Below, piece after piece: positions 8,362 to 21,508 of a stretch of 32,000 bases of DNA. Within the stretch, counting starts at the first letter, position 1; the number at the start of each line of letters is the position of its first letter. A model generated the notes under the pieces. The model was not told where the DNA came from and did not search any database. It saw nothing but the letters and a program-made list of their open reading frames with translations. The stretch lies in the NCBI RefSeq assembly GCF_040655775.1, contig NZ_JBFAKN010000002.1:190832-222831 (forward strand), in the 5' to 3' direction. The position numbers were made by a program, and so were the translations under genes. The DNA comes from Streptomyces sp. NPDC050315 (GTDB lineage Bacteria > Actinomycetota > Actinomycetes > Streptomycetales > Streptomycetaceae).

Positions 8362-8904
8362 ATGGCGAGGAAGACGGCGGCGCTGGACGCGGTGGCCGGC
8401 ATCATCGAGGACTGGCGGCGGGAGCGGCCGGAGCTGGACACCTCGCCACTGGAGGTGCTGGCGCGGCTGCACCGTACGTTCCTGCGGTACAGCGCGAAGC
8501 TGACGGCTTCGGTGGAGTCGCACGGCCTGTCGGTGGCCGGGTTCGACGTGCTGACGGCGCTGCGCAGGGCGGGGAAGCCGTACCGGCGTACGGCGGGCCA
8601 GCTGGCCGATTCGGGGCTGATCTCGTCGGCGGGTGTGACGCTGCGGATCGACCGGCTGGAGAAGGACGGCCTGATCGTGCGGGAGCGGGACCCGGAGGAC
8701 CGGCGGGTGGTGCGGTCGCGGCTGACGGAGGAGGGCCTGGCCAAGATCGACGCGTTGTTCGCCGAGCATCTGGAGAACGAACGGCGGATGCTGGCCGGCC
8801 TCTCCCCCGCCGAGTGCCGTCAGCTGGCGCGGCTGCTGTCGAAGCTGGAGCGGTCGATCACGGAGTCGGGTGCGGCGGAGCCGGACTCGTCGTCCGGGGG
8901 CTGA
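8362..8904 (+). CDS. MarR family transcriptional regulator
   Basis: GGGGAGGG RBS lies ~8 nt upstream of ATG 8362. Winged-helix region LSVAGFDVLTALRRAGKPYRRTAGQLADSGLISSAGVTLRIDRLEKDGLIVRERDPEDRRVV. The track start at 8077 lies inside pepN. Confidence 0.85.
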   Translation: MARKTAALDAVAGIIEDWRRERPELDTSPLEVLARLHRTFLRYSAKLTASVESHGLSVAGFDVLTALRRAGKPYRRTAGQLADSGLISSAGVTLRIDRLEKDGLIVRERDPEDRRVVRSRLTEEGLAKIDALFAEHLENERRMLAGLSPAECRQLARLLSKLERSITESGAAEPDSSSGG

Positions 8905-10183
8905 CCGGCGGCTCTTCGGTGGCGGGCGGGCCGGGCCGGAGCAGGAGCCATGCCCCGCAGATCAGCGTGATGGCCTGGGCGCCGATCAGCAGCGCGTATC
9001 CGGCGCCGAAGCTGTGGCCGCCGCCGAGGGCGATGGCGGCTCCCATGGCGGTGGGCATGAAGGCGGAGACGAGGTTGCCGACGCCGTTGACCACTCCGTA
9101 GGCGCTGCCGACCGTACCGGCCAGCGCGTGCCGCTGTACGAGGGTGGGGATGGCCGGGCCCTGCAGGCCCCAGAAGCCGCCCGCCAGGACGAGTCCGGTG
9201 GCGGCGAGCCAGGCGGCGTCCGCGGTGATGACGAGCAGGACGCAGCTTCCGGTACCGAGCGCGCCGACGACGAACAGCAGGGGCAGCCTGCGGGCGGACA
9301 GCTTGTCGATGAGGAAGCCACCGAGGAACCCGGAAGCCAGGCTCATCAGGAACGGCAGCGCGGAGACAGCGCCCATCTGGGCGAGGGAGAAGTGGCGTTC
9401 CTGAAGGAGGTACGCCGGCAGCCAGGAGCTGCTCCCCCACAGGTAGGCCAGGGTGGCGATCTCGATGAGCAGGATGCAGCCGAGGCGCGGGGTGCGCAGG
9501 GCTTCGCGCAGGGTGGCCGCGACGCCGCGCCGCGGTCCCGAAGGGGCGTGCCCGGCTCTCCTCTCCCCCGCTTGCCGGCGTTCCCGTATGAACAGCGCGA
9601 TGAGTGGCAGCCCGATCGCGGCGTTGAGGAGCGCGAGGAGCACGAAGGACGTGTGCCAGTCGTAGCGGTGGACGAGGTAGGTGATCAGGGGCAGCCCGAC
9701 GGCGGTGCCCAGGGAGACGCCCATGGAGCTGACGGCGTTGGGCCTGCCCACCTCGTGCGGCGCGAAGTGCTCCTTGACGTACATCGTCTTGAGCGAGAAC
9801 AGCGGCCCTTCGGACACGCCCAGCAGGAAGCGGAGGGCGATGAACATCAGGGCGCCGAGCGCATAAGGAGAGAGCAGGGTGAGTGCTGCCCACAGGCCGA
9901 CGCTCACCAATAGGCCGCGCCGCGCCCCCAGGGCGGATTCGTACAGCGGGGTGAGGAAGAAGGCGGCGAGTCCGTATCCGATGAGGAAGACGGTCATCAG
10001 GGCGCCTTGGAGGACGCGGTCGCCGGTCATCCCGAAGTGGTCGGTGAAGGCGCGGTCGGTGATCAGTACGGAGACGTTGACGCGGTCGACGTAGGAGATC
10101 AGGACGATGGCGAGCAGGCTGAGGACGCCCGCCCACCGCCGCGGGGAGGCCGTGGCGGTGGGCGGTGCGGCGGTCGGCGCCAC
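8858..10183 (-). CDS. MFS transporter, anion:cation symporter (ACS)-like, last gene of the catabolic operon
   Basis: 12-TM-type hydrophobic profile, with SYVDRVNVSV near TM1 typical of ACS/phthalate-type permeases. The GTG at 10181-10183 is the first in-frame start after the Rieske stop (5-nt gap). The upstream 219 aa of the track ORF overlap the Rieske gene out of frame. Confidence 0.75.
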   Translation of the reverse strand: MAPTAAPPTATASPRRWAGVLSLLAIVLISYVDRVNVSVLITDRAFTDHFGMTGDRVLQGALMTVFLIGYGLAAFFLTPLYESALGARRGLLVSVGLWAALTLLSPYALGALMFIALRFLLGVSEGPLFSLKTMYVKEHFAPHEVGRPNAVSSMGVSLGTAVGLPLITYLVHRYDWHTSFVLLALLNAAIGLPLIALFIRERRQAGERRAGHAPSGPRRGVAATLREALRTPRLGCILLIEIATLAYLWGSSSWLPAYLLQERHFSLAQMGAVSALPFLMSLASGFLGGFLIDKLSARRLPLLFVVGALGTGSCVLLVITADAAWLAATGLVLAGGFWGLQGPAIPTLVQRHALAGTVGSAYGVVNGVGNLVSAFMPTAMGAAIALGGGHSFGAGYALLIGAQAITLICGAWLLLRPGPPATEEPPVSPRTTSPAPPHPTP

Positions 10184-10188
10184 CGGTG

Positions 10189-11259
10189 TCAGCCGCCGGC
10201 GGGGGCGGTCGCCGCGGCGGGCTCCGGGGAGGCGAGCGCGGCGGCCTGCTGTTCGGCCGCGGTCCGGTAGAGGCGGCGCAGCCGTACGACACCGAGGTCG
10301 TGCTGGTAGAGGTTCTCGGCCTGGTCGGCGTCGTGCGGCATGGCCTCCAGCATGACGCGGTCCTGTTCGAGCACTTCCCAGTGACGCTTCTCGATGAGCG
10401 TGCGGTACAGGAAGCGCCAGGTGTCGCGCTGCCAGCCGGTGACCTTGCGGTAGCGCCAGAAGAAGACGCCGCTGCGGTGCTCGTCCACGGGGCAGATCAT
10501 GCCGACGATCCCGAAGGGGCCGCCGGGGCCCGCGGACGGCGGGTACGGGATGGACAGGTCGACCCAGTCGATACCGGTGCGGCACAGTTCGACCCAGTCG
10601 AAGTTGACGCCGCGCTGGTCGGTCTTCTCGAAGAAATAACCGCGGTCGGTCTCCCGGATGCGGAACTTCGCGGTGGTGTCGCCGTCGAACATCGTGTGCG
10701 ACTCGTGGTGCAGGAACTGGCCGTGCATCGGGTCGAGGAGGTTCTCCATGCCGAACCGCCAGGGCACGTCCCACTCGGCGTAGCAGAGGATGGCCTCCGT
10801 ACCGGGGTCGGTGAGCGGTTCGGGGAGGGTCAGTTCGCACGGCTCCGGGTGCTGCTCGTCTCCGAAGTAGGCGAGGATCGCGCCGCCGACCTCGCGTACG
10901 GGGAGGCTGGTGACGAGCTTCTTGCCCTCCAGGTTGCAGCCGGGCAGGCCCGGTACGGAGGAGACCGTGCCGTCACCCTCGACCTCGACGCCGTGGTACC
11001 AGCAGGCCACGCGGTCCCCGAGGTGCTTGCCGAGAGAGAGCCGGGCGCCCCGGTGCGGGCAGCGGTCGGCGAGCATGTGGAGGGTGCCGTCGGCGCGCCG
11101 GAAGAGGAGCCAGTCCTCTCCGAGGGCGGTGACCTTGCGCATGCCTCCGGGGGCGACGAAATGGGACGGCACTACGGGGTGCCACTGGTTGCGCAGCCCG
11201 GTGGCGTAGATGTGCTCGGCGGTGGCGGCGGTGCCGGCCTTGGTGTGGGTGAGGGTCAT
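10189..11259 (-). CDS. Rieske [2Fe-2S] non-heme iron oxygenase, VanA/phthalate-family (class IA) oxygenase component
   Basis: Rieske motif CPHRGARLSLG...ACWYHG. Mononuclear iron motif ENLLDPMHGQFLHH (E-x3-D-x2-H-x4-H). ATG 11257-11259 lies 1 nt after the stop of the 73-aa ORF (TGAcATG). Confidence 0.85.
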   Translation of the reverse strand: MTLTHTKAGTAATAEHIYATGLRNQWHPVVPSHFVAPGGMRKVTALGEDWLLFRRADGTLHMLADRCPHRGARLSLGKHLGDRVACWYHGVEVEGDGTVSSVPGLPGCNLEGKKLVTSLPVREVGGAILAYFGDEQHPEPCELTLPEPLTDPGTEAILCYAEWDVPWRFGMENLLDPMHGQFLHHESHTMFDGDTTAKFRIRETDRGYFFEKTDQRGVNFDWVELCRTGIDWVDLSIPYPPSAGPGGPFGIVGMICPVDEHRSGVFFWRYRKVTGWQRDTWRFLYRTLIEKRHWEVLEQDRVMLEAMPHDADQAENLYQHDLGVVRLRRLYRTAAEQQAAALASPEPAAATAPAGG

Positions 11260-11260
11260 G

Positions 11261-11482
11261 TCAGGCTCCCAGGCGGTGCATCTCGGCGCGGAAGGTGTCC
11301 TCGGTCCAGGGGGCGCCGTCGGGGGCGTGCACCTGCCGGGAGTTGAGGCCGCGGACGACATCGGCGAGCTCGTGGCCTTCGTTGGTGAAGACCTCTTCGA
11401 GGGTCGCGGCGAGCTTGTACTCGTACGGGGTGGGCTCGTGCGTACGGGACTGGTGGACGTCCAGGTACGGCCAGGGGGTCAT
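11261..11482 (-). CDS. 73-aa protein of unknown function with a recombinase-type LNxxG..PxGxxW helix-turn-helix-like motif, coupled to the Rieske oxygenase
   Basis: Strong SD: GGAGG lies 5 nt upstream of ATG 11480-11482. Its stop is 1 nt from the Rieske ATG. The C-terminal half reads ELADVVRGLNSRQVHAPDGAPWTEDTFRAEMHRLG. Confidence 0.65.
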   Translation of the reverse strand: MTPWPYLDVHQSRTHEPTPYEYKLAATLEEVFTNEGHELADVVRGLNSRQVHAPDGAPWTEDTFRAEMHRLGA

Positions 11483-11519
11483 CGGTGCCTCCGGTGTCTA
11501 CAAGGCGAGCGGGGTGGCT

Positions 11520-12512
11520 TTACAGGTCCAGGACGAGGCGGTCGGAGGCACAGCGCGAGACGCAGATCATCATGGTCGCGTTCGCCGCGTGCTCGGCCTC
11601 GCTGAGGAGGAAGTCGCGGTGGTCGGGGACGCCTTCGAGGACGCGGGTCTCGCAGCTGCCGCAGATGCCGTCGCGGCAGGAGCTCTCGGCCTGCAGGCCG
11701 GCGGCCTCCACAGCTTCGAGGATCGAGGTGTCCGCACCGACGCTGAGCGTCGTTCCCGAGCGGCGGCACTCGACTTCGAAGGCGCTGTCGTCGCCGCTGC
11801 GCTCCACAACGGGCGCGGCGAAGCGCTCCACCCGGAGCTGTGCGGCGGGGCAGCGATCCTCGACGGCGACGAGCAGCGGCTCGGGGCCGCAGCAGTACAC
11901 GAGGGTGTGGTCGTCGAGGCCGGTCAGGGCGGCGTCGAGGTCGATGTGGCCGTGTTCGTCCTGGGGGTGGAGGACGAGTTCGCCGCCTCCTTGCTCGGCG
12001 AGGTCGGCGAGTTCGCTGCCGAAGGCCATCGAGGCGCGGCTGCGGCCCCCGTGGACGAGTCGCCAGGGCACGCCCTTACGGGTGGCCTCGCGGGCCATGG
12101 CCAGCAACGGGGTGATGCCGATGCCGCCGGCGATGAACAGGTACGCGGGCGCGTCGGCGAGCGCGAAGTGGTTGCGGGGACCGACGGCGGTGACGGTCTG
12201 TCCGGGGCGCAGCTGGGTGTGGACGAAGCGGGAACCTCCGCGGGAGGCCGGTTCGTTGAGGACTCCGAGGCGGTAGCGCGTGGTGTCGAGGGGGTCGCCG
12301 CACAGGGAGTACTGCCGGGTGTGGCCGCCGACGTGCAGGTCGAGGTGGGCGCCGGGCTGCCAGGCGGGCAGGGGCTTGCCCTCGGGGTGGACGAGGTCGA
12401 CGGAGAGGACGCCGTCGGCTTCCCAGGTCATGCGGTGGACGAGCAGGTCGAGGCGGGGCTCGGCGGCCGTGGCCTGGTCAGGGGCGCCCGGCCGGGTGTC
12501 GTTGCTGGTCAT
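11520..12512 (-). CDS. PDR/VanB-family oxidoreductase (FMN + NAD(P)H + plant-type [2Fe-2S] reductase of class IA oxygenases)
   Basis: RQYSL (flavin), FIAGGIGITPLLAM (NAD), and C-terminal CRDGICGSCETRVLEG...MICVS ferredoxin cysteines. Confidence 0.88.
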   Translation of the reverse strand: MTSNDTRPGAPDQATAAEPRLDLLVHRMTWEADGVLSVDLVHPEGKPLPAWQPGAHLDLHVGGHTRQYSLCGDPLDTTRYRLGVLNEPASRGGSRFVHTQLRPGQTVTAVGPRNHFALADAPAYLFIAGGIGITPLLAMAREATRKGVPWRLVHGGRSRASMAFGSELADLAEQGGGELVLHPQDEHGHIDLDAALTGLDDHTLVYCCGPEPLLVAVEDRCPAAQLRVERFAAPVVERSGDDSAFEVECRRSGTTLSVGADTSILEAVEAAGLQAESSCRDGICGSCETRVLEGVPDHRDFLLSEAEHAANATMMICVSRCASDRLVLDL

Positions 12513-12525
12513 GGCGTCGGCCTCC

Positions 12526-14193
12526 TCACGCGGTGGGGATCTTGACGGGCGGGGTGAACGGGTTCTTCATCGGGCCGAGCGCGTTGAGGTCGACCTCGAC
12601 GAGGGTGGGGTCGCCGGAGGCGACGGCCTCGGTGAGGACGGGCGCCGCGTCGGCCTCGGCGGCGATCCGGGCGTAGGGCAGGCCGCAGGCACGGGCCAGG
12701 AGGGAGAAGTCGGGGGTGGTGAGGTCGACCCCGGAGCGGCGCTCGCTGTAGCGGTCCTGCATGTTGCGCAGCACGCCGTAGCCGCCGTCGTTGAAGACGA
12801 GGAGGGTGAGCGCGGGCCGCTCCTGGGCGAGGGTGAGGAGCTCCCCGAGGTGCACGGCGAGGCCGCCGTCACCGGCCATGACGACGGTCGGTTCGTCCGG
12901 CCGTGCGAGTGCGGCGCCGAGGCCCATGCCCAGGCCCTGGCCGATGCCGCCGCCGCGCGGGAAGACGTTGTCGCGCGGGTCGTAGATCTCCAGCAGGCGG
13001 TTGCCCCAGCTGCTGGACGGGATGGTGACATCGCGGGCGATGACGGCGCGGCGCGGCAGGGCTGCACGCAGCGCGTCGCAGACGGCGGCCTGCGGCCCGA
13101 TGCCGTCGTGCAGGGCGGCGCGTACGTCCTCGCGTACGGAGGTGACGCGGGCGGTCCAGCCGGGCTCGGCGCTACCGGTCGCGGGGCCCTCGCTGGGCGT
13201 CTGCGGCCCCTCGGGCAGGCGGGCGAGCAGGGCGCCGAGTACGGCGTGCGCGTCGCCGTGCAGTGCGTGCTGCGCCGGGTAGACGCGCCCCAGGGCGGCG
13301 GCGTCGACGTCGATCTGGAGGTGCGTTTCGGGCAGGGCGAGCGAGTAGTCGCCGGTCTCGTTGGAGCGGAAGTGGGTGCCGATGGTGAGCAGGACGTCGG
13401 CGTCGGCGAGCAGGGCGCGGCCCGCCGGTGTGGTGGCGAAGTTGCCGATGACCTGCGGGTGGTCCTCGGGGACGGCGCCGCGGCCGGAGTTGGAGGTGAA
13501 CAGTCCGGCGCCGGTGCGCGCCAGCAGCTCGGCGAGCCGGTCCCCGGCCCCGCACGCGCCACCGCCTGCCCAGATCAAGGGCCTGCAGGCGCCGGCCAGC
13601 AGCCGTGCGGCGGCGTCGAGTTCGGCCGCCTCCGGGTGCGCCGTCTCCGGGGGCACGACGGTGACCTGCTCGTCCTGCTGCGGCGCGTACTGCAGGTCGA
13701 TCGGCCACTCCACGCTCGCCGGGCCACCGGGTGCGCGCAGGGCGGCGCGGGCCGCCTCTCGTAGTACGCGTCCCGCGGCGTCCGTGGAGGGCACGGTCGC
13801 AGCGTATGTAGAGACCGCGCGCAACATGGCGAGCTGGTCCTTGGTCTCGTGGATGAAGCCGCGGCCGCTGCCGAGGTACTGGCTTTCGATCTGGCCGGTG
13901 ACGTGCAGGACGGCGGTGCCGGAGCTGAGCGCTTCGATGAGCGACCCGGCGGCGTTGCCGGCGCCGGTACCGGTGGAGGTGAGGGCGCAGCCTATGGAGC
14001 CGCGGGCGCGTCCGTAGGCGTCGGCGGCGTTCACCGCGGTGGCTTCGTGGCGTACGGGCACGAAGCGCAGCTCACGGTCGACGGCTTCGACGAGCGGCAG
14101 GTTGTGGACGCTGACGATGCCGAACACGGTGTCGATGCCGAGTTCGCGCAGGACGGCGACGAGGAGGTCGCCTCCGGTGGGATGGTGCGTCAT
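12526..14193 (-). CDS. Thiamine diphosphate-dependent enzyme (acetolactate synthase large subunit / benzoylformate decarboxylase superfamily)
   Basis: N-terminal PYR domain with catalytic Glu in VRHEATAVNAADAY. ThDP-binding motif MAGDGGLAVHLGELLTLAQERPALTLLVFNDGGYG. It lies 13 nt upstream of the reductase gene. Confidence 0.85.
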   Translation of the reverse strand: MTHHPTGGDLLVAVLRELGIDTVFGIVSVHNLPLVEAVDRELRFVPVRHEATAVNAADAYGRARGSIGCALTSTGTGAGNAAGSLIEALSSGTAVLHVTGQIESQYLGSGRGFIHETKDQLAMLRAVSTYAATVPSTDAAGRVLREAARAALRAPGGPASVEWPIDLQYAPQQDEQVTVVPPETAHPEAAELDAAARLLAGACRPLIWAGGGACGAGDRLAELLARTGAGLFTSNSGRGAVPEDHPQVIGNFATTPAGRALLADADVLLTIGTHFRSNETGDYSLALPETHLQIDVDAAALGRVYPAQHALHGDAHAVLGALLARLPEGPQTPSEGPATGSAEPGWTARVTSVREDVRAALHDGIGPQAAVCDALRAALPRRAVIARDVTIPSSSWGNRLLEIYDPRDNVFPRGGGIGQGLGMGLGAALARPDEPTVVMAGDGGLAVHLGELLTLAQERPALTLLVFNDGGYGVLRNMQDRYSERRSGVDLTTPDFSLLARACGLPYARIAAEADAAPVLTEAVASGDPTLVEVDLNALGPMKNPFTPPVKIPTA

Positions 14194-14202
14194 GGAGGCT
14201 CC

Positions 14203-14991: not shown

Positions 14992-15077
14992 GGGAGTTCC
15001 TTCGGTGGTGGTGAGCGGTACGGAGTGCCCGGGGAGGCCGGTGGTGGCCGCGCGGGCCGATGCGCCGGGCAGGTTGA

Positions 15078-15815
15078 TCAGTGCATGGTGAAGCCGCCGT
15101 TGACGGCGATCACCTGTCCCGTGAGGTAGCGGGATTCCTCGCCGAGCAGGAAGGCGACGACACCGGTGAGGTCGTCCGGCTGCTGGGTCCGGGAGATGGC
15201 CCGGTTGAGCCGGTAGAGCTCGTGGCGCTCCGCGGGGACGTTCTCGGTCGCCTCGCACTCGGTGATGCCGGGCGCGACGGCGTTGACGGTGATGCCGCGG
15301 TCTCCCAGCTCACGGGCCATCGCACGGGTGAGGGCGATGACGGCCCCCTTGGAGGCGATGTAGTGGGCCAGCCGCGGGGAACCGTACAGAGCGGCGTCCG
15401 ACGCGAGGTTGACGATGCGGCCGCTGCCCCCGGCGAGAAGCTGGGGCAGCAGGGCGCGGGCGACGAGCCACGGACCGCGGGCGTTGACCGTCATGATCCG
15501 GTCCCAGGCGTCGATGCCGATGTCCTGGAACTCCTTGCCGCCCACGCCGTTGGCGAGGCCGGCGTTGTTGACCACGCCGTGCAGCGGCCCCAGCTCGGCG
15601 ACCCGCTCCGCCATCGCCGCGACCGAATCCGGGTCGGCGACGTCGCACGGGACGAAGTGAGCGTCGCGGCCCTCGGCGCGCAGCTCGTCGGCCACCCGCG
15701 TGCCCCGCTCGGCGTCGAGTTCGGCGAGCACGACGCGGTGTCCGTCCGCGGCGGCCCGGCGGGCCATGGCCTCCCCCAGGCCACGGCCGGCGCCGGTGAT
15801 GACGACGGTGCGCAT
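15078..15815 (-). CDS. Classical SDR family oxidoreductase
   Basis: VVITGAGRGLGEA, NNAG, NLASDAALYGSPRLAHYIASKGAV (Ser...YxxxK intact). The ATG overlaps the cupin stop (TGATG at 15813-15817). Confidence 0.88.
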   Translation of the reverse strand: MRTVVITGAGRGLGEAMARRAAADGHRVVLAELDAERGTRVADELRAEGRDAHFVPCDVADPDSVAAMAERVAELGPLHGVVNNAGLANGVGGKEFQDIGIDAWDRIMTVNARGPWLVARALLPQLLAGGSGRIVNLASDAALYGSPRLAHYIASKGAVIALTRAMARELGDRGITVNAVAPGITECEATENVPAERHELYRLNRAISRTQQPDDLTGVVAFLLGEESRYLTGQVIAVNGGFTMH

Positions 15816-16336
15816 CAGTCGCGGGTGACGCCGTGCATCGGCGAGTGCTCGGGGTAGGTGGGGACCTGCGGCTTCTGCGTGCCGATGACGACGCAGAAGA
15901 GGGCGTCGGTGTCGCCCTCGTTCTTGAGGGACCGGGCCACACCGGCCGGCACGACGATCATGTCGCGGTACCCGAGCGTGCGGTACTCGACCTCGTCCTT
16001 GCCGCGGTGGATACCGACCCTGACCTGGCCCTCCAGGACGAAGAACGCCTCTTCGACGTCGTGGTGGGTGTGCTCGGGGCCCTCGGCGCCGGGCGGCAGC
16101 AGCATGTTGGAGAAGGTGAAGCCGCCGGACGGCAGGACGCGGTTGTCGCCCTCGTGGTTACCGGTGGCGCCGGAGCCGACGTACCGGATCTGGGCACGGC
16201 GGTACTGGTCACCGGCCTTGGCCTGGAAGGCCAGGGTGTTCCAGTCGGGCTCGCGGGAGTCCTTGGTGGCGATCAGGGAGTCGGTGTAGCGGGCGAGGTC
16301 GCCGCCGTTGTCGTAGTCGGTGGTGGTGATGGGCAT
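15815..16336 (-). CDS. Cupin domain protein (173 aa)
   Basis: AAGGAAG RBS upstream of ATG 16334-16336. Cupin metal motif GPEHTHHDVEEAFFVLEG ... VPAGVARSLKNEG. The track start at 16450 runs into the hydrolase gene. Confidence 0.8.
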   Translation of the reverse strand: MPITTTDYDNGGDLARYTDSLIATKDSREPDWNTLAFQAKAGDQYRRAQIRYVGSGATGNHEGDNRVLPSGGFTFSNMLLPPGAEGPEHTHHDVEEAFFVLEGQVRVGIHRGKDEVEYRTLGYRDMIVVPAGVARSLKNEGDTDALFCVVIGTQKPQVPTYPEHSPMHGVTRD

Positions 16337-16385
16337 GGCTACAACTTCCTTTTGTCGTACTAATGGGCGGGGCTGTGGACAGTCC

Positions 16386-17279
16386 TCAGCCGGCTTCGGC
16401 GATTCCTGCTGAAATTCGGAGGTGGGCGAGAACCCACGCGTCGAAGGCATCGGGCTGTTCCTGGTTCGCGAGGTGACCGGCGTCCTTGACGATCACGTAC
16501 ACGGAGGAATGGAGGCCTGCTGTGAGCGTCTGGCTCGCTTCGATACCGGTGACCCGGTCCTGGTCACCGCAGAGCACCAACGTGGGCGCCACGACGGCGG
16601 CGAGGTCGGCGATACGCAGATCGGTGGCGGCCATCGACTCGGCGGCGTAGCGGTAGCCGGGCAGCCGCACGGAGCGCGCCATGGTTTCGGTGACGCGCTG
16701 GACGAGAGCGTCGGGAGCGGCGTCGGAGACCAGGCGGGGGCCGCGCCGTTCGGCGAAGGCGCGGGGGCCGGCTTCGGCCAGCTCGTCGGCCCGCGCCCGC
16801 ATCGCTTCCGCCTTCGCCGGGTCGGTCCCCGAGCCGGCGCTGGAATCGGCCACGATCAGAGAGGAGACGAGTTCGGGGTGGCGGGTGGCGAGCCGCACGG
16901 CGATGACGCCACCCCAGGAGACCCCGAGCACATGAGCGCGGCCGCCACGCTGCCGGATGAGGGCTGCGGCGGTATCGGCGAAGTCGTCGAGCGTGAACGG
17001 ACCTGCCGGGTCGGCGGACTTGGCGTAGCCCGGCGCGTCCCAGGCCACCACGCGCACGTACCGGCTCAGCGTGGCGAGCTGCGGCGCGAACGCGGCGGAG
17101 GAGGACCCGATCCCGTGCAGACACAGCAGTACAGGACCACTGTCGCCGGCTTCCTCGACGTACAGCCCGGCGAGATCGTAAGGAGACGACATGGAAGGAA
17201 CGGACGCCCCGATGGCCTCAGACGAAGTGGGGGACGCGGACGAGGAAGGGAGAGTGCGATGAGCGGTACGGCCGGTCAT
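16386..17279 (-). CDS. Alpha/beta-fold hydrolase (meta-cleavage-product hydrolase / enol-lactonase-like)
   Basis: LLCLHGIGSS, nucleophile elbow GVSWG, Asp in CGDQDRV, His in DAGHLANQEQP. ATG 17277-17279 overlaps the upstream stop (ATGA), which favours this start. An alternative ATG at 17192 (MSSPYDLAG) would remove a Ser-rich 29-aa leader. Confidence 0.82.
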   Translation of the reverse strand: MTGRTAHRTLPSSSASPTSSEAIGASVPSMSSPYDLAGLYVEEAGDSGPVLLCLHGIGSSSAAFAPQLATLSRYVRVVAWDAPGYAKSADPAGPFTLDDFADTAAALIRQRGGRAHVLGVSWGGVIAVRLATRHPELVSSLIVADSSAGSGTDPAKAEAMRARADELAEAGPRAFAERRGPRLVSDAAPDALVQRVTETMARSVRLPGYRYAAESMAATDLRIADLAAVVAPTLVLCGDQDRVTGIEASQTLTAGLHSSVYVIVKDAGHLANQEQPDAFDAWVLAHLRISAGIAEAG

Positions 17280-18280
17280 AGGATCTGCCCCCTCCGCCCG
17301 GCGAGGGCGCCGAGGCTGCGCAGTACCGCGTACGGCACGACCTGGCTGGTGGCGGGGTTGCCGGGGTCGGGGAGGTGCTGCACTTCGAAGCGGTAGACAC
17401 CGTGACTGCCGGACGCCTCGATGACGTGCCGAGTGTGCTGGGCCGCCGGGTCGGCGACGACATGGACGCGTACGGCATCCAGGTCGCCGACGGCCAACGC
17501 GACGGAGGCGGCGACGTTGGTGGACTTCGGGAACTTCACCGGCACGTCGCGGGCGGTGCCGCGCATGACCTCGACCGGTCCGGTGGCCGTGCGCATCCGG
17601 TGCAGCAAGTCCTCGTCCATCCAGGGCTGTTCGAGGGTGCTGGGCAGCTTGGTGGTGGTGAGGGTGACGTCGGTGAGCCGGCCGAGGGAGCGTACGGCCT
17701 GCAGCAGGTCCAGGCCGCCGACGGCACCGCCGGTGAAGTACACACGCCCCGGGCCGGCGGCGAGGAGAGCGGAGGTGAGGTCCTCATCGGTGAGCGCACC
17801 GGTGGAGGCGATGAGGAGGTCGGTACCGGAGCGCAGGACTCGTTCGCCCCACTCGCGGACGACGCTCTGGCCCGCCGCTTCGACGATGAGGTCGCACTGG
17901 TCGAGGGCGTCCTCGAAGGAGAGCTGAGGTACGGGGGCATCGCCGAGAGCACGGTTGTCGATGATGCAGATCAGCTCGGCGCCGGGGACGTTCCCCTCGG
18001 CGAGCGCGGTGCCCACGACGCGGCCGATGGCGCCCCAGCCGACGAGGCCAACCTTGCGGGTGGTGGGGGGCGTGGCGGGTGCCGGCGAGGCGGTGCGTGC
18101 TGTGGTTGTCGGAGGGAGGGTTGCCGAGGGGGCGGTCGGCGTAGTGGTCGAAGCGTTCGCCGAGGGAGCAGTTGACGTGGTGGTCGAAGAGTTCGCCGAG
18201 GAGGTCGTGGCTGTGGTTGCCGAGGGGAGAGTCGACGTGGTGGTCGACGTCGGGTTGTGCGTGGTGGTCGGGCGTGTCAT
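17276..18280 (-). CDS. Aspartate dehydrogenase-fold (NadX/DUF108-like) NAD(P)-binding protein with a ~78-aa Thr/Ser-rich N-terminal extension
   Basis: Rossmann start KVGLVGWGAIGRVVG, and the C-terminal NPATSQVVPYAVLRSL typical of AspDH-domain proteins. ATG 18278-18280 overlaps the dioxygenase stop (ATGA). There is no in-frame ATG/GTG/TTG between it and the Rossmann fold. Confidence 0.8.
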   Translation of the reverse strand: MTRPTTTHNPTSTTTSTLPSATTATTSSANSSTTTSTAPSANASTTTPTAPSATLPPTTTARTASPAPATPPTTRKVGLVGWGAIGRVVGTALAEGNVPGAELICIIDNRALGDAPVPQLSFEDALDQCDLIVEAAGQSVVREWGERVLRSGTDLLIASTGALTDEDLTSALLAAGPGRVYFTGGAVGGLDLLQAVRSLGRLTDVTLTTTKLPSTLEQPWMDEDLLHRMRTATGPVEVMRGTARDVPVKFPKSTNVAASVALAVGDLDAVRVHVVADPAAQHTRHVIEASGSHGVYRFEVQHLPDPGNPATSQVVPYAVLRSLGALAGRRGQIL

Positions 18281-19236
18281 GCGGGGATCTCCTGGGGGGC
18301 CGGCTGGGTGAGGGGGCCGGGGTCGGGGTGACCGGCCATGTGGGAGCGGATCTCCTGTGACGGGGGGCCTGCGGTGCCCCACAGGTCGGACAGCTCCGGT
18401 ACCCGGCGCCAGACGCGGGCGATCCAGGCGTCCTCGACGATCTGGGCGACCTCGGAGGTGTATTCGCAGACGAGACCGGAAGGGTCGGTGAAGTAGGAAA
18501 AGGTGTTGTTACCGGGTCCGTGTCGCCCCGGCCCCCACTGAGGGTTGATGCCGTGGTGGCGCAGCCGGCCCAGACCGCGCATGAAGTGGTCGACCGAGCT
18601 CATCTCGTACGCGACGTGGTTGAGGGAGGCCCATTCGGCCTGGTTGAAGGCGATGCAGTGGTGGTCCGCGTTGCAGCGCAGGAACGCCATCTGGTGTTCC
18701 GACCAGTCCGAGACCCGCAGGCCCAGGACATCGCAGTAGAAGGCGACGGCGGCGTCGATGTCGGTGGTGTTGAGGACGGCATGGGTGACGCCGACCGGGA
18801 CGGCGCCGTCGCGCCCCCGCGGGGCGACGGCCTCGACCTGGGCGCTGATCTCGATGAGCCGGTGCTCGGGGTCGGTGAAGCGGAGGCCGTAGCCACCGCC
18901 GACCTGGTCCAGCGGGCCGGGGCCGGTGACGGGCGTGATGCCGCGGGCGAGCAGTCGGCGGGCGGCTTCGTCGACCTCCGCGGGGGTGGCGACGGCGAAG
19001 GCGATCCGGCCGAGTCCGGTGCGGTCGGCGCGGGTCAGCTGGAGGACGTGGTGCTCGTCGCCCGTGCCGCGCAGCCAGCGTGCGCCCCGGTCACCCTCGA
19101 CGGCCTCCAGGCCCCAGACCTCCTGGTAGAAGTCGGCGGCTTCGGTGAAGGCGGGGGTGAACAGTTCGACGCACCGCAGGGAGCGCAGACGCGCAATGGG
19201 CTGCTGGGGCGGAGGCTGGTGCGGGGTACGGGACAT
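18277..19236 (-). CDS. Two-domain type I extradiol ring-cleavage dioxygenase (VOC superfamily, catechol 2,3-dioxygenase / BphC-like)
   Basis: GGAG lies 6 nt upstream of ATG 19234-19236. Metal ligands in VTHAVLN, LNHVAYE and LVCEYTSE, plus HHCIAF and FSYFTDP catalytic His/Tyr contexts. Confidence 0.85.
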   Translation of the reverse strand: MSRTPHQPPPQQPIARLRSLRCVELFTPAFTEAADFYQEVWGLEAVEGDRGARWLRGTGDEHHVLQLTRADRTGLGRIAFAVATPAEVDEAARRLLARGITPVTGPGPLDQVGGGYGLRFTDPEHRLIEISAQVEAVAPRGRDGAVPVGVTHAVLNTTDIDAAVAFYCDVLGLRVSDWSEHQMAFLRCNADHHCIAFNQAEWASLNHVAYEMSSVDHFMRGLGRLRHHGINPQWGPGRHGPGNNTFSYFTDPSGLVCEYTSEVAQIVEDAWIARVWRRVPELSDLWGTAGPPSQEIRSHMAGHPDPGPLTQPAPQEIPA

Positions 19237-19612
19237 CGCTGTCTCCAGTCGTACGGGGGGCGATGGGGCGGGGCGGTGGTGGGCTGATGGGGCGGGGGGG
19301 GGCGGTGGTGGGTTGGTGGCCGGTGGTGGGAGGTGGAGGCGGAGGGGGTGGGGGGGCGGGGGGCGGGGCCCCCGAAGGGGCGCGGGCGGACTCCGGCGGG
19401 TTGCGGGGCGGTGGTGGGTTGGTGGGGCGGTGGTGGGCTGGTGGTGGAGGCGGAGGAGGGCGGAGGGGGCGGGGCGGGCCCCCAGATCGGCTGCGGGGCG
19501 GGGCTCCGGGGCAGGGCCCCAATCTGCTGCGGGGCGGGGCTCCGAAGCGGGCCTCCCAAGGAACGGGTCAGCCGGAGCAGGCGGCTCAGGCGGACCAGGT
19601 AGGCCGGGCCGG
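19237..19612. repeat. 376-nt intra-operon spacer made of G-tracts (plus strand) with nested direct repeats
   Basis: About 30 runs of >=3 G within ~300 nt by my count. The exact 21-mer GGGGCGGTGGTGGGTTGGTGG occurs at 19299-19319 and 19405-19425. The exact 17-mer CTGCGGGGCGGGGCTCC occurs at 19491-19507 and 19527-19543. On the sense (minus) strand, a C(UUCG)G tetraloop hairpin maps to 19368-19381. Confidence 0.9.
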
Positions 19613-21508
19613 TCAAGTGGCCCAGGGGAGGGGGCTGGATGAGGTGTTCCAGTAGAGGGACTTTTGGCGTTGGTGGGCGCGGATGCCGTCGCGGCCCTTT
19701 TCGCGGCCGAGGCCGCTGTCCTTCATGCCGCCGAAGGGGGTGGAGATGCTGAATTGCTTGTAGGTGTTGATCCAGACGGTTCCGGCGTCGATGCGGCGGG
19801 CGAGGCGCCAGGCGCGGGCGGCGTCCTTGGTCCACAGGCCGCAGGCCAGTCCGTAGACGGAGTCGTTGGCCTGGGTGACCAGGTCGTCCTCGTCGTCGAA
19901 GGGCAGGGCGACCAGGACCGGGCCGAAGATCTCTTCCTGGCAGGTGCGGGCGGAGTTCGGCAGGCCGTCGAGGATCGTGGGCAGGTAGTACGCGCCGTCG
20001 CGGTACTGCTCACCGTCCGGTACCGCGCCGCCGCACAGGACGCGGGCGCCTTCCTCGCGGGCGAGGTCGACGTACGCGGCGACGGCGTCCCGGTGCTTGT
20101 GGTGGACCAGGGGGGCGACCTGGGTGCTGGGGTCAGTGCCGGGGCCGATGCGGAGTTTGCGTGTACGGGCGACGAGTTCGGTGAGGAAGTGGTCGTACAG
20201 GGAGCGGGCGATGAAGAGGCGGGAGCCGGCGATGCAGCTCTGGCCGCTGGAGGAGAAGATGCCGAACATCACGCCGGCCAGGGCCTGTTCGACGTCGGCG
20301 TCTTCGAGGACGACGGTGGGTGACTTGCCGCCGAGTTCGAGGGAGACCGGCATCATCTTGTCGGCGGCGGCGTGCGCGAGGGTGCGGCCGGTGCGGGTAC
20401 CGCCGGTGAAGGTGACCTTGCCGACCGCCGGGTGGCGGACGATCGCATCGCCGATGACGCGGCCGGGTCCGGGGAGTACGGAGAGCAGGGCCGTGGGCAG
20501 GTCGTACTCGGTCAGCGCGCGGTGGAGGATGCGGCCGAGGGCGAGGGAGACCAGCGGGGTCCATTCGGCGGGCTTGAGGAGTACGGCGTTGCCGGCGGCC
20601 AGGGCCGGGGCGAGTTTCTGGGCGTCGCTGGCGATGGGCGAGTTCCAGGGGGTGATGGCGCCGATGACGCCGATCGGTTCGTGGACGCTCATCGTGACGT
20701 ACGGGCCGCGGGCGGGGGTGAGGGCGTCCTCGGCGGTCTCCAGGGCGGCGGCGGTGTAGCGGAAGGTGCCGGCGGCGCTGTGGACCAGGGCGCGTGTCTC
20801 GGTACGGGCCTTGCCGGTGTCGGCGGTCTGCAGGGCGGAGAGTTCTTCGGCCGCGTCTTCGATGAGGGCGGCGATGCGGTGCAGCAGGCGGGCGCGTTCG
20901 TGTGCGGGCAGGTCGCGCCAGGCCGGGTCGGCGGCGGCCCGCGCGGCGTGTTCGGCGGCTTCGTCGACGTCGGCGAGCGAAGCGCCGCGGAGGACGGTGA
21001 GGACCTGGCCGGTCGCCGGGTCGGTGGTGGTGATCGGAGCACCGCGCCCCGGCCGCCAGGCCCCGGCCGCGAGGATCTCGTCGGCCGGGAGGATGTACGT
21101 GGGGGACGTGGATGCGGAGGCCGTGTCTACGGCCGCCACATTCACGGTCGCCGCGTCCGCGGTGGTCGCGTCCGCGGTGGTCGCGTCCACGGCAGCCGCC
21201 GCCACGGAGCTCGCGTCCACGGGGGACGCCCCCACAGCGGCCGCGTCCCCGGGCATAGACGACGGAGCGGCAGCCCCGGTCGCCGCCGAAGCCCCGGCCG
21301 ACGCGGAAGACCCCGGCGGCACCGAAGCCCCGGACGACGCGGAGATCCCGGACGACACGGAGGACTCGGACGCGGCGGAGGGCGCGGACGGCCCGGACGG
21401 CGCGGCGGGCCCCGCCGGCGTGGGCGGGATCGGGGGTTTGGGGGTCGAAGACATCGGTGGTTCCCCAGACATCGGTCGGTTCGCGGACATCGGCGAGTGG
21501 ATGGGCAC
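19613..21508 (-). CDS. NAD(P)+-dependent aldehyde dehydrogenase with a ~140-aa Ala/Ser/Thr/Pro-rich N-terminal extension (start uncertain)
   Basis: Core motifs VSLELGGKSPTVV, FSSSGQSCIAGSRLF (catalytic Cys), EEIFGPV, WINTY. The conserved domain begins near 21090 (ILPADEILAAG). Candidate starts are GTG 21508 and ATG 21490, 21472, 21454 and 21256; none has a convincing SD. Confidence 0.8.
   Translation of the reverse strand: MPIHSPMSANRPMSGEPPMSSTPKPPIPPTPAGPAAPSGPSAPSAASESSVSSGISASSGASVPPGSSASAGASAATGAAAPSSMPGDAAAVGASPVDASSVAAAAVDATTADATTADAATVNVAAVDTASASTSPTYILPADEILAAGAWRPGRGAPITTTDPATGQVLTVLRGASLADVDEAAEHAARAAADPAWRDLPAHERARLLHRIAALIEDAAEELSALQTADTGKARTETRALVHSAAGTFRYTAAALETAEDALTPARGPYVTMSVHEPIGVIGAITPWNSPIASDAQKLAPALAAGNAVLLKPAEWTPLVSLALGRILHRALTEYDLPTALLSVLPGPGRVIGDAIVRHPAVGKVTFTGGTRTGRTLAHAAADKMMPVSLELGGKSPTVVLEDADVEQALAGVMFGIFSSSGQSCIAGSRLFIARSLYDHFLTELVARTRKLRIGPGTDPSTQVAPLVHHKHRDAVAAYVDLAREEGARVLCGGAVPDGEQYRDGAYYLPTILDGLPNSARTCQEEIFGPVLVALPFDDEDDLVTQANDSVYGLACGLWTKDAARAWRLARRIDAGTVWINTYKQFSISTPFGGMKDSGLGREKGRDGIRAHQRQKSLYWNTSSSPLPWAT

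Follow-up and report, generated by a model that had tools for sequence, protein, structure and literature searches.

Organisation of the locus

Within the stretch of the Streptomyces sp. NPDC050315 genome that was analysed (32,000 nt, the window), twelve genes were found on the minus strand at the positions given in the initial annotation, with all twelve ORFs checked, and each family assignment made there agreed with Pfam and NCBIfam profile HMMs. The features of the locus are as follows.

8362–8904, plus strand: MarR-family regulator (Pfam MarR_2, 2e-13)
8858–10183, minus strand: ACS-type MFS transporter (MFS_1, 2e-47; closest NCBIfam subfamily TIGR00893, ACS/galactonate)
10189–11259, minus strand: alpha-only Rieske oxygenase, VanA/phthalate/carbazole-type (Rieske, 4e-18; VanA_C, 1.9e-8)
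11261–11482, minus strand: 73-aa PF20552 (HTH_62) protein (E 5e-32)
11520–12512, minus strand: PDR/VanB-type reductase (NAD_binding_1 and Fer2; RxYS motif; flavin, NAD and plant-type 2Fe-2S domains)
12526–14193, minus strand: ThDP enzyme, family PRK07064 (NF005470, 693 bits against a cutoff of 495)
14203–14991, minus strand: atypical SDR, family PRK07062 (NF005468, 353 bits against a cutoff of 266)
15078–15815, minus strand: classical SDR (adh_short, 1e-54; YxxxK intact)
15815–16336, minus strand: single-domain cupin (Cupin_2, 1e-12)
16386–17279, minus strand: alpha/beta hydrolase, lactonase/esterase/amidase type (GxSxG)
17276–18280, minus strand: aspartate dehydrogenase (AspDH)-family protein (Asp_DH_C, 8.5e-24, 84 bits)
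18277–19236, minus strand: two-domain type I extradiol dioxygenase (VOC; Glyoxalase, 2e-26)
19237–19612, minus strand: 376-nt intra-operon spacer, a C-rich degenerate tandem-repeat expansion (TRF arrays, periods 7–36 nt)
19613–21256 (maximal ORF to 21508), minus strand: NAD(P)-dependent aldehyde dehydrogenase (ALDH; Aldedh, 1e-158)
21771–21780, no strand: palindrome TAAGCGCTTA, putative operator in the divergent promoter
21916–23520, plus strand: divergent MFS transporter, aromatic-acid/H+ symporter family (TIGR00895, 223 bits)

The gene junctions described earlier were re-found, namely ATGA overlaps at 18277–18280 and 17276–17279, a TGATG overlap at 15813–15817 and gaps of 1, 5, 9, 13, 37, 49, 86 and 376 nt, with most starts being preceded by GGAGG-like ribosome-binding sites. 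Two starts were corrected, that of the SDR called at 14203–15258 to 14991 and that of the cupin to 16336, because the upstream extensions show a GC3 of 0.56–0.58 against approximately 0.9 in the genes. Two further starts are uncertain: that of ALDH falls somewhere from 21256 to 21508 (in the maximal ORF the Pfam domain sets in at residue 151), and the MarR gene could begin at 8077, 8277 or 8362. The MarR gene converges on the ACS-type MFS gene, the two overlapping at the 3' end of the latter. The canonical lower meta-cleavage pathway is absent: neither the operon nor the scanned ORFs of the window encode a hydratase, an aldolase, an acylating dehydrogenase or a tautomerase. The earlier view that this is not a textbook pathway stands. 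Desferrioxamine-like genes lie 3 kb from the operon.

Conservation of the gene cassette

Eighty Streptomyces loci were examined, of which 76 were long enough to show the 11-gene core running from ALDH to the Rieske gene. This core was collinear in 76/76, more than chance would give. The genes behave as the operon that was proposed, and conservation stops abruptly beyond the MarR gene, the MFS gene and the operon. The ACS-type MFS gene, the twelfth of the operon and separated from the Rieske gene by 5 nt, was present in 9/80 loci. In most Streptomyces relatives the position of the 376-nt spacer is taken by a gap of only tens of nt; no Rfam match or terminator-like site was detected within the spacer. 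Both the spacer and the ACS-type MFS gene are lineage-specific additions.

The 11-enzyme cassette occurs nearly unchanged in hundreds of bacteria from soil, marine and hospital sources. Nine shared enzymes recur, along with the PF20552 protein, a transporter and a redox partner, in Caballeronia, Acinetobacter, Cupriavidus and Klebsiella, and also in Novosphingobium, Paracoccus, Pseudosulfitobacter and Burkholderia (including B. pseudomallei). The cassette, of which this locus is a single copy, is conserved in both Actinobacteria and Proteobacteria. In the Klebsiella chromosome the cassette sits between speB and tkt, and in Novosphingobium the ThDP enzyme, AspDH and ALDH genes form a separate unit. 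Four of the cassette genes are reported to be co-induced on mucin in A. baumannii. No member with an assigned substrate was found in the literature or among curated models.

This distribution bears on whether the genes form a pathway at all. Biosynthetic clusters abound in Streptomyces genomes and the desferrioxamine-like genes are close by, as would suit secondary-metabolite tailoring or an accidental juxtaposition. Such a reading is nevertheless scarcely credible given the collinearity of the core, the identical gene set in the Klebsiella chromosome, Acinetobacter, Burkholderia and marine Rhodobacterales, the uptake transporters, porins and IclR or MarR repressors found in the cassette, and the lack of any scaffold-forming enzyme.

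Transporters and regulation

The initial annotation described two MFS transporters flanking the operon, which is true of this locus; the conserved member of the cassette is the divergent one alone. It was present and divergent in 71/80 Streptomyces loci, and its product is 38–39% identical over the full length to the MFS proteins of the Cupriavidus and Caballeronia cassettes. Across the cassettes, the accompanying genes include MarR or IclR regulators, porins and uptake systems which differ in type (MFS, ACS-MFS or a three-gene ABC system). In 56/80 Streptomyces loci a MarR homologue adjoins the cluster, in most cases next to the divergent MFS gene. The palindrome in the divergent promoter is accompanied by a relaxed second copy at 21862–21874. 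The motif TAAGSSCTTA was detected 70 times in 24 kb of ALDH–MFS intergenic DNA (59/71 loci), compared with twice in 1.48 Mb elsewhere in the loci. On the best explanation, this is a catabolic operon under repressor control whose substrate is an aromatic carboxylic acid, most likely an N-heteroaromatic one.

Oxygenase and redox partner

The translation of the Rieske oxygenase contains the CxH...CxxH and ExxxDxxHxxxxH motifs and is 50–51% identical to the oxygenases of the proteobacterial cassettes. Its best solved relatives, CarAa (2e-20) and OxoO (7e-12), both act on N-heterocycles. The PDR/VanB-type reductase is its predicted electron donor and shares 49% identity with its PDR/VanB counterpart in the cassette of Cupriavidus pauculus; in other cassettes this role falls to a ferredoxin with a FAD reductase, or to a flavodoxin. 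The 73-aa ORF between them is present as initially called but is not anonymous, being a strong member of PF20552 found in every cassette seen. Its AF2 model (pLDDT 82.5) is a small helical bundle, for which a fold search gave no significant match.

In the proteobacterial cassettes the classical-SDR orthologue directly follows the Rieske gene, often overlapping it, and this translational coupling resembles that of dioxygenase/cis-diol-dehydrogenase pairs. An SDR coupled in this way to an oxygenase suggests a diol dehydrogenase, and the classical SDR is proposed to be a cis-dihydrodiol dehydrogenase. This argues against the earlier suggestion of a mandelate-like route, in which an SDR, a ThDP decarboxylase and ALDH would trim the side chain of an aryl-glycolate and a VanAB-like O-demethylase would then unmask a catechol, its ring being opened by the dioxygenase and hydrolase. 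The VanA_C domain, the PDR-type reductase and the joint occurrence of the ThDP enzyme, ALDH and SDR agree with that scheme. However, nothing further was found in favour of O-demethylation, most cassettes have a ferredoxin and FAD reductase with no VanB-type protein, and the ThDP enzyme scores 153 bits on the benzoylformate decarboxylase model (cutoff 493), belonging to PRK07064 instead. Neither a mandelate dehydrogenase nor a mandelate racemase is present, and the scheme has no lower pathway and does not account for AspDH or the cupin. It is considered very improbable.

Putative ring-cleavage and downstream enzymes

The closest structure to the extradiol dioxygenase is 3b59 (E 2.5e-63), to which no function is assigned. 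Its identity to the proteobacterial cassette VOC proteins is only 27–30%, with the His/His/Glu ligands aligning. The Streptomyces enzyme belongs to a lineage other than the proteobacterial one, and therefore the two versions of the cassette may not share a substrate. The initial reading of dioxygenase and hydrolase as a ring-opening module is not supported, the hydrolase being unlike meta-cleavage-product hydrolases: it scores 32 bits on the BphD model and 126–153 bits on NCBIfam models for 3-oxoadipate enol-lactonase (PcaD)-type enzymes, esterases and amidohydrolase, and its PDB neighbours are PcaD, esterases and the AAMS amidohydrolase.

The ThDP enzyme carries the GDG...ND motif and the catalytic Glu, is 40–42% identical to its cassette orthologues and is proposed to be a 2-oxo-acid decarboxylase. 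The label of atypical SDR proved apt, as all cassette orthologues carry T-S-A/S-A-R in place of the canonical YxxxK; this protein, without the Tyr/Lys of carbonyl reductases, is proposed to reduce an enone side chain. The cupin (42–45% identity across phyla) has an invariant HxH...E, with the His of motif 2 swapped for an invariant Arg, and is probably a metalloenzyme. ALDH is 59–61% identical to its cassette orthologues.

Aspartate dehydrogenase

The AspDH-family protein has a 75-aa T/S/P/A-rich N-terminal tail with no other in-frame start codon. It is 27–34% identical to the proteobacterial proteins, scoring 145 bits, under the NCBIfam equivalog cutoff of 206, and the catalytic His is invariant among the cassette proteins of this family. 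The K. pneumoniae AspDH has been purified and is a genuine aspartate dehydrogenase; the primers used encode MKKVMLIGY... and ...CRELA*, the exact termini of the gene in the Klebsiella cassette. Likewise, the R. eutropha AspDH primers match the termini of the Cupriavidus cassette AspDH. As the Klebsiella positional orthologue is a true AspDH, aspartate or iminoaspartate is probably a pathway metabolite, which supports the initial view of this protein as a pointer to an amino-substituted intermediate.

The true AspDH activity would also suit the breakdown of an aromatic amino acid, such as phenylalanine or a ring-substituted analogue, by an hca/mhp-like route, which the Rieske-SDR-VOC-hydrolase set resembles. 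After dihydroxylation and extradiol cleavage of the ring, C–C hydrolysis would free L-aspartate in place of succinate for deamination by AspDH, while the 2-hydroxypentadienoate fragment would be left to the ThDP enzyme, ALDH, the cupin and the atypical SDR. We know of no precedent for such disposal by decarboxylation, the hydrolase is of a type other than MhpC/BphD, and the transporters come from families for aromatic acids and anions, not from the amino-acid permeases. The purified Klebsiella and Delftia enzymes, moreover, aminate oxaloacetate 5–10 times faster than they deaminate aspartate. This route is regarded as unlikely.

Proposed pathway

Hayaishi, Taniuchi, Kuno and Horibata reportedly described in 1961–63 a route in which kynurenate is converted to a dihydrodiol, followed by a diol dehydrogenase, an Fe(II) 8,8a-dioxygenase and an NAD(P)H-dependent reduction. 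Decarboxylation via an aldehyde is said to give a carboxyethyl compound, with glutamate, alanine and acetate as the end products. Set against this classical scheme, each cassette enzyme is needed exactly once; the scheme requires no hydratase-aldolase or meta-cleavage-product hydrolase and the cassette has none. The N1-C2(COOH)-C3-C4 portion of kynurenate is the skeleton of (imino)aspartate. Our best, though tentative, inference is that the cassette encodes a full route from kynurenate-type 4-oxoquinoline-2-carboxylates to 2-oxoglutarate and aspartate, the substrate and each step below being part of that inference.

Kynurenate (4-hydroxyquinoline-2-carboxylate) or a close analogue such as xanthurenate would be imported by the MFS symporter and dihydroxylated at C7/C8 by the Rieske oxygenase and PDR reductase, and the cis-diol would be re-aromatised by the classical SDR. 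Extradiol 8,8a cleavage by the VOC dioxygenase would yield 5-(3-carboxy-3-oxopropenyl)-4,6-dihydroxypicolinate. The atypical SDR would reduce its side-chain double bond, the ThDP enzyme would decarboxylate the 2-oxo acid to an aldehyde and ALDH would oxidise this to 5-(2-carboxyethyl)-4,6-dihydroxypicolinate. The cupin could then oxidatively open the 4-hydroxy-2-pyridone (a beta-dicarbonyl), with the lactonase/amidase-type hydrolase releasing 2-oxoglutarate and iminoaspartate and AspDH converting the latter to L-aspartate. The roles given to the cupin, hydrolase and atypical SDR are chemical guesses. It should also be noted that the Novosphingobium ThDP-AspDH-ALDH unit would be better suited to three consecutive steps than to this mapping.

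The same architecture and logic (Rieske dioxygenation, diol dehydrogenase, extradiol cleavage and an unconventional lower pathway via 2-oxo-acid decarboxylase and aspartate) could, somewhat doubtfully, serve another natural aromatic or heteroaromatic acid, with some enzymes acting in a different order. All of the cassette-conservation evidence is neutral on the substrate, uptake systems vary among cassettes and no kynurenine-pathway gene was adjacent in any locus examined. Against this, we could name no alternative common natural compound that would call for all nine enzymes, need no hydratase-aldolase or meta-cleavage-product hydrolase and yield (imino)aspartate. The enzyme set of the cassette fits the 1960s route for kynurenic acid breakdown, the genes of which, to our knowledge, have never been identified.

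Organisation of the operon

The twelve minus-strand ORFs proposed in the initial annotation (8858–21508) were all found with the same boundaries, and the junctions between them agreed exactly, with ATGA and TGATG overlaps and with gaps of 1, 5, 9, 13, 37, 49, 86 and 376 nt. Each family it had assigned was likewise recovered with Pfam and NCBIfam. The operon encodes an ACS-like MFS transporter, a Rieske/VanA_C oxygenase, a PDR-type reductase, a ThDP enzyme, two SDRs, a cupin, an alpha/beta hydrolase, an aspartate dehydrogenase (AspDH)-fold protein, a two-domain VOC extradiol dioxygenase, an ALDH and a 73-aa protein of family PF20552. The G+C content of the window is ~72%, with a third-position G+C of ~0.9 inside the operon genes, and GGAGG-like sequences lie upstream of most operon starts. 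By third-position G+C, the start of the atypical SDR gene (14203–) was placed at 14991 and that of the cupin gene at 16336. Candidate starts of the ALDH gene range from 21256 to 21508.

Features flanking the operon and in the ALDH–MFS intergenic region
8362–8904, plus strand, MarR gene (candidate starts 8077, 8277 and 8362)
8858–10183, minus strand, ACS-type MFS gene at the 3' end of the operon
21771–21780, palindrome TAAGCGCTTA
21862–21874, second, relaxed copy of the palindrome
21916–23520, plus strand, divergent MFS gene

The 376-nt spacer between the ALDH and dioxygenase genes is a C-rich degenerate tandem-repeat expansion, and the matching gap is a few tens of nt in most relatives. An Rfam match and a terminator-like feature were searched for in this spacer and none was found; Rfam, terminator and promoter scans of the operon together with the spacer gave nothing above background. 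It should also be noted that degenerate short tandem-repeat expansions, G-rich on the plus strand, are numerous in the lineage of the window, where they sit in intergenic DNA and in gene 5' ends or loops (18059–18280, 19237–19612, 21143–21420, 21449–21493, 21567–21621, 21719–21762 and the central loop of the divergent MFS, ~22760–22900). Protein segments derived from such repeats are the 75-aa T/S/P/A tail of the AspDH, the T/S-rich loop of the MFS and, in the ALDH ORF, a long N-terminal extension of low complexity. From coordinates, enlarged gaps also occur in the closest Streptomyces relatives (L004, L005 and L081) and are absent in most Streptomyces.

Conservation in Streptomyces and the divergent promoter

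Relatives were located by a profile search with the ThDP enzyme (10-sequence profile, one genome per species), in which at least 570 matched stretches were found to encode a relative. The best 80 loci, all from Streptomyces, were compared with the window proteins by tblastn. In all 76 loci that were sufficiently long, the eleven genes from ALDH to Rieske kept their order and orientation, with protein identities to the window typically of 70–95%; the window ThDP protein is 96% identical to those of Streptomyces ochraceiscleroticus and S. violens. Conservation ends directly past the Rieske gene and, on the other side, directly past a MarR gene, and no conserved genes were found outside the cassette in Streptomyces. 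A biosynthetic role and a chance juxtaposition of the genes were rejected on the grounds of synteny. The divergent MFS gene was present in 71 of the 80 Streptomyces loci and a MarR homologue nearby in 56, with the ACS-type MFS gene in only nine. In the window, the convergent MarR and ACS-type MFS genes overlap at their 3' ends by 47 nt (8858–8904).

The palindrome TAAGSSCTTA was detected in 70 copies within 24 kb of ALDH–MFS intergenic DNA (59 of 71 loci), against two copies in the other 1.48 Mb. Its position in the intergenic region points to a regulated promoter upstream of ALDH, and the motif probably serves a local MarR-type repressor as operator. Three proteobacterial loci with IclR regulators (L001, L002 and L083) were also checked, and the motif was absent from them.

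The cassette in proteobacteria

As the best loci of the 10-sequence profile all came from Streptomyces, proteobacterial cassettes were taken from a collection of annotated plasmids and chromids searched by tblastn. The clusters around the ThDP gene were found to hold a PF20552 gene, a Rieske alpha subunit, an SDR, a cupin, an alpha/beta hydrolase, a second SDR, an AspDH, an ALDH, a VOC dioxygenase, a redox partner, a transporter and an IclR regulator. Carriers include Caballeronia, Acinetobacter baumannii, Cupriavidus pauculus, Novosphingobium resinovorum, Klebsiella pneumoniae (between speB and tkt), Paracoccus, the marine Pseudosulfitobacter and Burkholderia pseudomallei, and profile searches with the ThDP enzyme and PF20552 also named relatives from Paraburkholderia, Cupriavidus necator, Raoultella, Kluyvera and Enterobacter. 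A ThDP match in Variovorax proved to be a paralogue in another gene context. Identities between the window and Caballeronia proteins were 61% for ALDH, 50% for Rieske, 49% for the classical SDR, 45% for both the cupin and the atypical SDR, 42% for the ThDP enzyme, 39% for the MFS, 35% for the hydrolase, 33% for AspDH and 27% for VOC.

The redox partner and the extradiol dioxygenase are two components that were swapped during evolution of the cassette. The redox partner is of the PDR type in Streptomyces and C. pauculus (49% identical to each other), a Rieske ferredoxin with a FAD reductase in Caballeronia, Acinetobacter, Klebsiella and Burkholderia, and a FAD reductase with a flavodoxin in the Rhodobacterales cassettes. 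Independent evidence for co-expression in a homologous cassette comes from A. baumannii, in which A1S_0954 and A1S_0956–0958, encoding the hydrolase, AspDH, ALDH and ThDP enzyme, showed a joint 2.2–3.7-fold rise on mucin.

PLSDB records of 0.7–5 Mb with the cassette, namely L084 (the K. pneumoniae 'plasmid' NZ_CP129771.1) and several from Acinetobacter and Burkholderia, contain the core chromosomal genes speB, tkt, pgk, fbaA and rpiA. These records are evidently chromosomes or fragments of them, and give no ground for taking the cassette as plasmid-borne in those species.

Oxygenase, reductase and extradiol dioxygenase

The translated Rieske oxygenase contains the CxH...CxxH cluster motif, as CPHRG...CWYHG, and the mononuclear-iron motif E/DxxxDxxHxxxxH in the form ENLLDPMHGQFLHH, with Pfam matches to Rieske (65.5 bits, cutoff 20.3) and VanA_C (35.1 bits, cutoff 23.5). 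NAD_binding_1 and Fer2 domains were identified in the reductase along with an RQYSL motif, and its identity to a protein annotated as a PDR/VanB oxidoreductase is 49%. The operon has no beta-subunit gene, and the motifs, the VanA_C domain and the fused flavin/NAD/2Fe-2S reductase place the pair with the alpha-only VanA/phthalate/carbazole-type Rieske oxygenases and their PDR-type reductases. Among solved structures, the oxygenase is nearest to carbazole 1,9a-dioxygenase, with 2-oxoquinoline 8-monooxygenase as a more distant relative. The initial annotation had proposed O-demethylation. None of the NCBIfam equivalogs was matched by the oxygenase, and in proteobacteria the classical SDR gene lies directly after the oxygenase gene, often overlapping it. 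This is the usual arrangement of a cis-dihydrodiol dehydrogenase, and the coupling would argue for dioxygenation and leaves O-demethylation unsupported.

The extradiol dioxygenase has two Glyoxalase domains and the 2-His-1-Glu triad of type I enzymes, with ligands that align with those of the proteobacterial VOC proteins. The latter are 54% identical to one another and 27–30% identical to the Streptomyces VOC, whose closest solved relative is 3b59, an uncharacterised structure matched by the Streptomyces VOC only. No match to 3om8 or 3b59 was obtained with the Klebsiella hydrolase or the Novosphingobium VOC, so neither structure could be taken as an orthologue of the proteobacterial cassette hydrolase or VOC.

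ThDP enzyme, SDRs, cupin and hydrolase

The ThDP enzyme belongs to PRK07064 (NF005470; 693.3 bits against a cutoff of 495, residues 2–552), and the nearest NCBIfam families that carry a functional name are those of 5-guanidino-2-oxopentanoate decarboxylase and acetolactate synthase. With the benzoylformate decarboxylase model NF005485 it scored 152.7 bits, below the cutoff of 493; set against the PRK07064 score, this gives no support to the mandelate-like side-chain shortening that had been suggested for the operon. The atypical SDR belongs to PRK07062 (NF005468; 353.5 bits, cutoff 266), and its catalytic YxxxK is replaced by T-S-A/S-A-R in every cassette orthologue. The cupin retains HxH...E, but the His of motif 2 is replaced by an invariant Arg.

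The best NCBIfam scores of the hydrolase were to PcaD-type models (126–153 bits), and its PDB neighbours are PcaD (an enol-lactonase), esterases and an amidohydrolase of the pyridoxine pathway. A meta-cleavage-product C–C hydrolase of the BphD, MhpC or XylF type was rejected, with the BphD (32 bits, cutoff 462) and HsaD (48 bits, cutoff 400) models far below cutoff. Genes for 2-oxopent-4-enoate hydratase, 4-hydroxy-2-oxovalerate aldolase, acylating acetaldehyde dehydrogenase and 4-OT/4-OD were absent from the twelve operon genes and the flanking ORFs scanned, which bears out the earlier remark that the gene content is unusual and lacks the canonical lower meta pathway. In this cassette the standard lower meta-cleavage steps are replaced by a ThDP decarboxylase, an SDR without the Tyr/Lys pair, a cupin and an AspDH, chemistry that is seldom tied to ring cleavage.

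The PF20552 protein

The 73-aa ORF matches PF20552 strongly (HTH_62; E 5e-32), at 110 bits over residues 3–73 against a gathering score of 27. A PF20552 protein was found in all cassettes, usually encoded by the first gene or adjoining the oxygenase gene (11261–11482 in the window, 6785–7093 in the proteobacterial locus L001, 3246–3554 in the Klebsiella locus L084, 6669–6971 in locus L086, and others). It was modelled as a small bundle of helices (pLDDT 82.5), for which no significant structural neighbour was found, only a weak resemblance to helix-turn-helix domains. The protein could be a regulator or an accessory of the oxygenase. The family, annotated as 'recombinase-like HTH', comprises 647 database clusters, all inspected ones of which adjoin cassette genes, and it appears almost cassette-specific. 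The Streptomyces proteins lack a ~30-residue N-terminal segment of the proteobacterial ones, and in Rhodobacterales an ABC transporter lies between the PF20552 and oxygenase genes.

Aspartate dehydrogenase

The window AspDH matches Asp_DH_C (84 bits, cutoff 27) and NAD_binding_3 (44 bits) and has the expected fold with a Rossmann N-terminal domain, with the catalytic His211 invariant in the alignment of cassette AspDHs. It scores below the equivalog cutoffs (145 against 206 bits for TIGR03855; 144 against 177 for the subfamily NF009828) and is 34% identical to its positional orthologue in Klebsiella. Because no other start codon is available to the gene, the 75-residue T/S/P/A-rich tail must be part of the translated protein. 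NadX proteins (TM1643, PA3505, ReuAspDH and KpnAspDH) share the fold, the Asp_DH_C domain and the catalytic His. They differ in that NadX can be encoded with the NAD-biosynthesis genes nadA and nadC, whereas the window gene lies in a catabolic operon, and in that the window protein falls below the equivalog cutoff and carries the low-complexity N-terminal tail.

Purified AspDHs of K. pneumoniae and Delftia aminate oxaloacetate 5–10x faster than they deaminate aspartate (PMC5554190). The Kpn primers of that study (MKKVMLIGY..., ...CRELA*) correspond to the exact termini of the cassette gene in L084, and its R. eutropha primers (MSMLHVSM..., ...HAVSI*) match the cassette AspDH gene of C. pauculus. 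On this primer match, KpnAspDH is the Klebsiella cassette gene itself. Given the AspDH activity of the Klebsiella cassette orthologue, aspartate, iminoaspartate or oxaloacetate is very probably a metabolite of the pathway. The initial annotation had taken the AspDH as a hint of an amino-substituted intermediate, an apt suggestion. Papers on P. aeruginosa that mention PA3505 give no function for it.

Stand-alone AspDH genes of Ralstonia solanacearum and Phaeobacter lie outside the cassette. In Phaeobacter gallaeciensis (L089, pP75_c, 10862–24168), the AspDH gene adjoins a gene of the DHDPS family and lies ~7 kb from kynureninase (kynU) and ~11 kb from 3-hydroxyanthranilate 3,4-dioxygenase. This is a second, distinct genomic association of AspDH with tryptophan/kynurenine metabolism.

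Comparison with known pathways

The cassette shares a Rieske oxygenase, an adjoining SDR, a type I extradiol dioxygenase and an alpha/beta hydrolase with the hca/mhp and carbazole car systems, and CarAa, the best structural relative of its oxygenase, is likewise alpha-only. It differs from them in its lactonase/esterase-like hydrolase and in having a ThDP enzyme, an atypical SDR, a cupin, an AspDH and an ALDH instead of a hydratase, an aldolase and an acylating dehydrogenase. A ThDP-dependent 2-oxo-acid decarboxylase followed by an aldehyde dehydrogenase also occurs in the mandelate (MdlB, MdlC, MdlD) and 2-ketoarginine (AruI, KauB) routes. The AruI family NF005712 was the third-best NCBIfam match of the ThDP enzyme (310 bits), but all models of these two routes were below cutoff and the protein belongs to PRK07064, a family to which NCBIfam assigns no substrate. 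In the lumichrome/riboflavin Lum operon, ThDP-dependent decarboxylation and Rieske and extradiol dioxygenases dismantle a fused N-heterocycle (PMC12746152), a combination also present in the cassette. However, the ThDP enzyme encoded by Lum is a two-subunit protein acting on the heterocycle, and the Lum gene set differs, with a P450 and a xanthine oxidase and without AspDH and PF20552 (PMC12746152).

Members of the cassette are generically named in NCBIfam release 20 (June 2026) and in genome annotations. Literature queries covering PA3505/PA3506, AspDH/Rieske/ThDP/cupin, PF20552/HTH_62 and the kynurenate/quinoline pathway returned no substrate assignment for it, so the locus is one more copy of a widespread uncharacterised cassette. 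Its pathway is a new variation on the Rieske/extradiol catabolic theme. The locus is very likely a conserved operon for the catabolism of an aromatic or heteroaromatic acid.

Kynurenate as a possible substrate

The kynurenate (4-hydroxyquinoline-2-carboxylate), or 'quinoline', pathway of Pseudomonas was reportedly worked out in the Hayaishi laboratory in 1961–63 (EC 1.14.99.2, 1.3.1.18, 1.13.11.10 and later steps), and Horibata et al. 1961 is a reference from that work. Delftia and Comamonas acidovorans are classical organisms of this pathway. Kynurenate is reported to be converted to the 7,8-dihydrodiol and, by NAD-dependent oxidation, to 7,8-dihydroxykynurenate, of which Fe(II)-dependent 8,8a-cleavage reportedly gives 5-(3-carboxy-3-oxopropenyl)-4,6-dihydroxypicolinate. 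NAD(P)H side-chain reduction, loss of CO2 via an aldehyde and oxidation are then said to yield 5-(2-carboxyethyl)-4,6-dihydroxypicolinate, with glutamate, alanine and acetate as the reported end products. To our knowledge the steps beyond 5-(2-carboxyethyl)-4,6-dihydroxypicolinate were never defined, and we know of no sequence assigned to the three EC numbers, which are believed still to be orphans. A search for a paper assigning genes to kynurenate degradation found none.

In the order of its chemistry, this pathway matches the enzyme set of the cassette: a dihydrodiol is formed and re-aromatised with NAD, Fe(II)-dependent extradiol cleavage takes place at the ring fusion, an oxo-enoate side chain is reduced with NAD(P)H, and decarboxylation via an aldehyde and amino-acid end products follow. 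The part played by the cupin, hydrolase and AspDH is newly proposed here. The enzyme set may map one-to-one onto the 1961–63 pathway, a putative route that we put forward tentatively, as somewhat short of an even chance. The six published steps would be carried out, in order, by the Rieske/PDR pair, the classical SDR, the VOC dioxygenase, the atypical SDR, the ThDP enzyme and the ALDH. The cupin would then cleave the 4-hydroxy-2-pyridone beta-dicarbonyl oxidatively, the lactonase/amidase-type hydrolase would release 2-oxoglutarate and iminoaspartate, and the AspDH would convert iminoaspartate to aspartate. The atoms N1–C2(COOH)–C3–C4 of kynurenate form an aspartate skeleton. Such a route would account for the absence of hydratase–aldolase and C–C hydrolase functions, the presence of AspDH and the aromatic-acid transporter. 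Against it, no kynurenine-pathway gene adjoins the cassette in any locus examined, ThDP–AspDH–ALDH form a separate unit in Novosphingobium, the AspDH of the window has diverged from those characterised, and the Streptomyces VOC is of another lineage than the proteobacterial VOCs. That the cassette is a complete catabolic pathway for kynurenate, and perhaps xanthurenate, is graded slightly lower, as less likely than not.

The cassette is self-contained, with nine enzymes conserved in two phyla, and is found in chromosomes of major opportunistic pathogens. Should the kynurenate assignment be right, it would supply sequences for EC 1.14.99.2, 1.3.1.18 and 1.13.11.10, define the steps from 5-(2-carboxyethyl)-4,6-dihydroxypicolinate to 2-oxoglutarate and aspartate, and close a 60-year gap in tryptophan metabolism, in organisms including K. 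pneumoniae, A. baumannii and B. pseudomallei. Kynurenate, a signalling metabolite, is abundant in hosts and plants, and the assignment would thereby reveal its removal by soil, gut and clinical bacteria. Work on AspDH has so far been mainly biotechnological; capture of iminoaspartate would explain the role of the bacterial enzyme and give it a physiological context. The prediction is directly testable, and the carrier species are genetically tractable.

Other genes in the window

Two further gene groups lie outside the operon.

2003–5376, minus strand, lysine/ornithine N-monooxygenase and PLP-dependent decarboxylase genes side by side
23575–30053, AraC regulator, GH35 and GH101 genes together
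24455–26461, plus strand, GH35 beta-galactosidase
26496–30053, minus strand, GH101 endo-alpha-N-acetylgalactosaminidase

The AraC/GH35/GH101 set points to the breakdown of mucin-type O-glycans, an unexpected trait for a soil Streptomyces. The N-monooxygenase and decarboxylase genes are arranged as in desferrioxamine-type siderophore biosynthesis, and both ORFs have long N-terminal extensions in their maximal reading frame.
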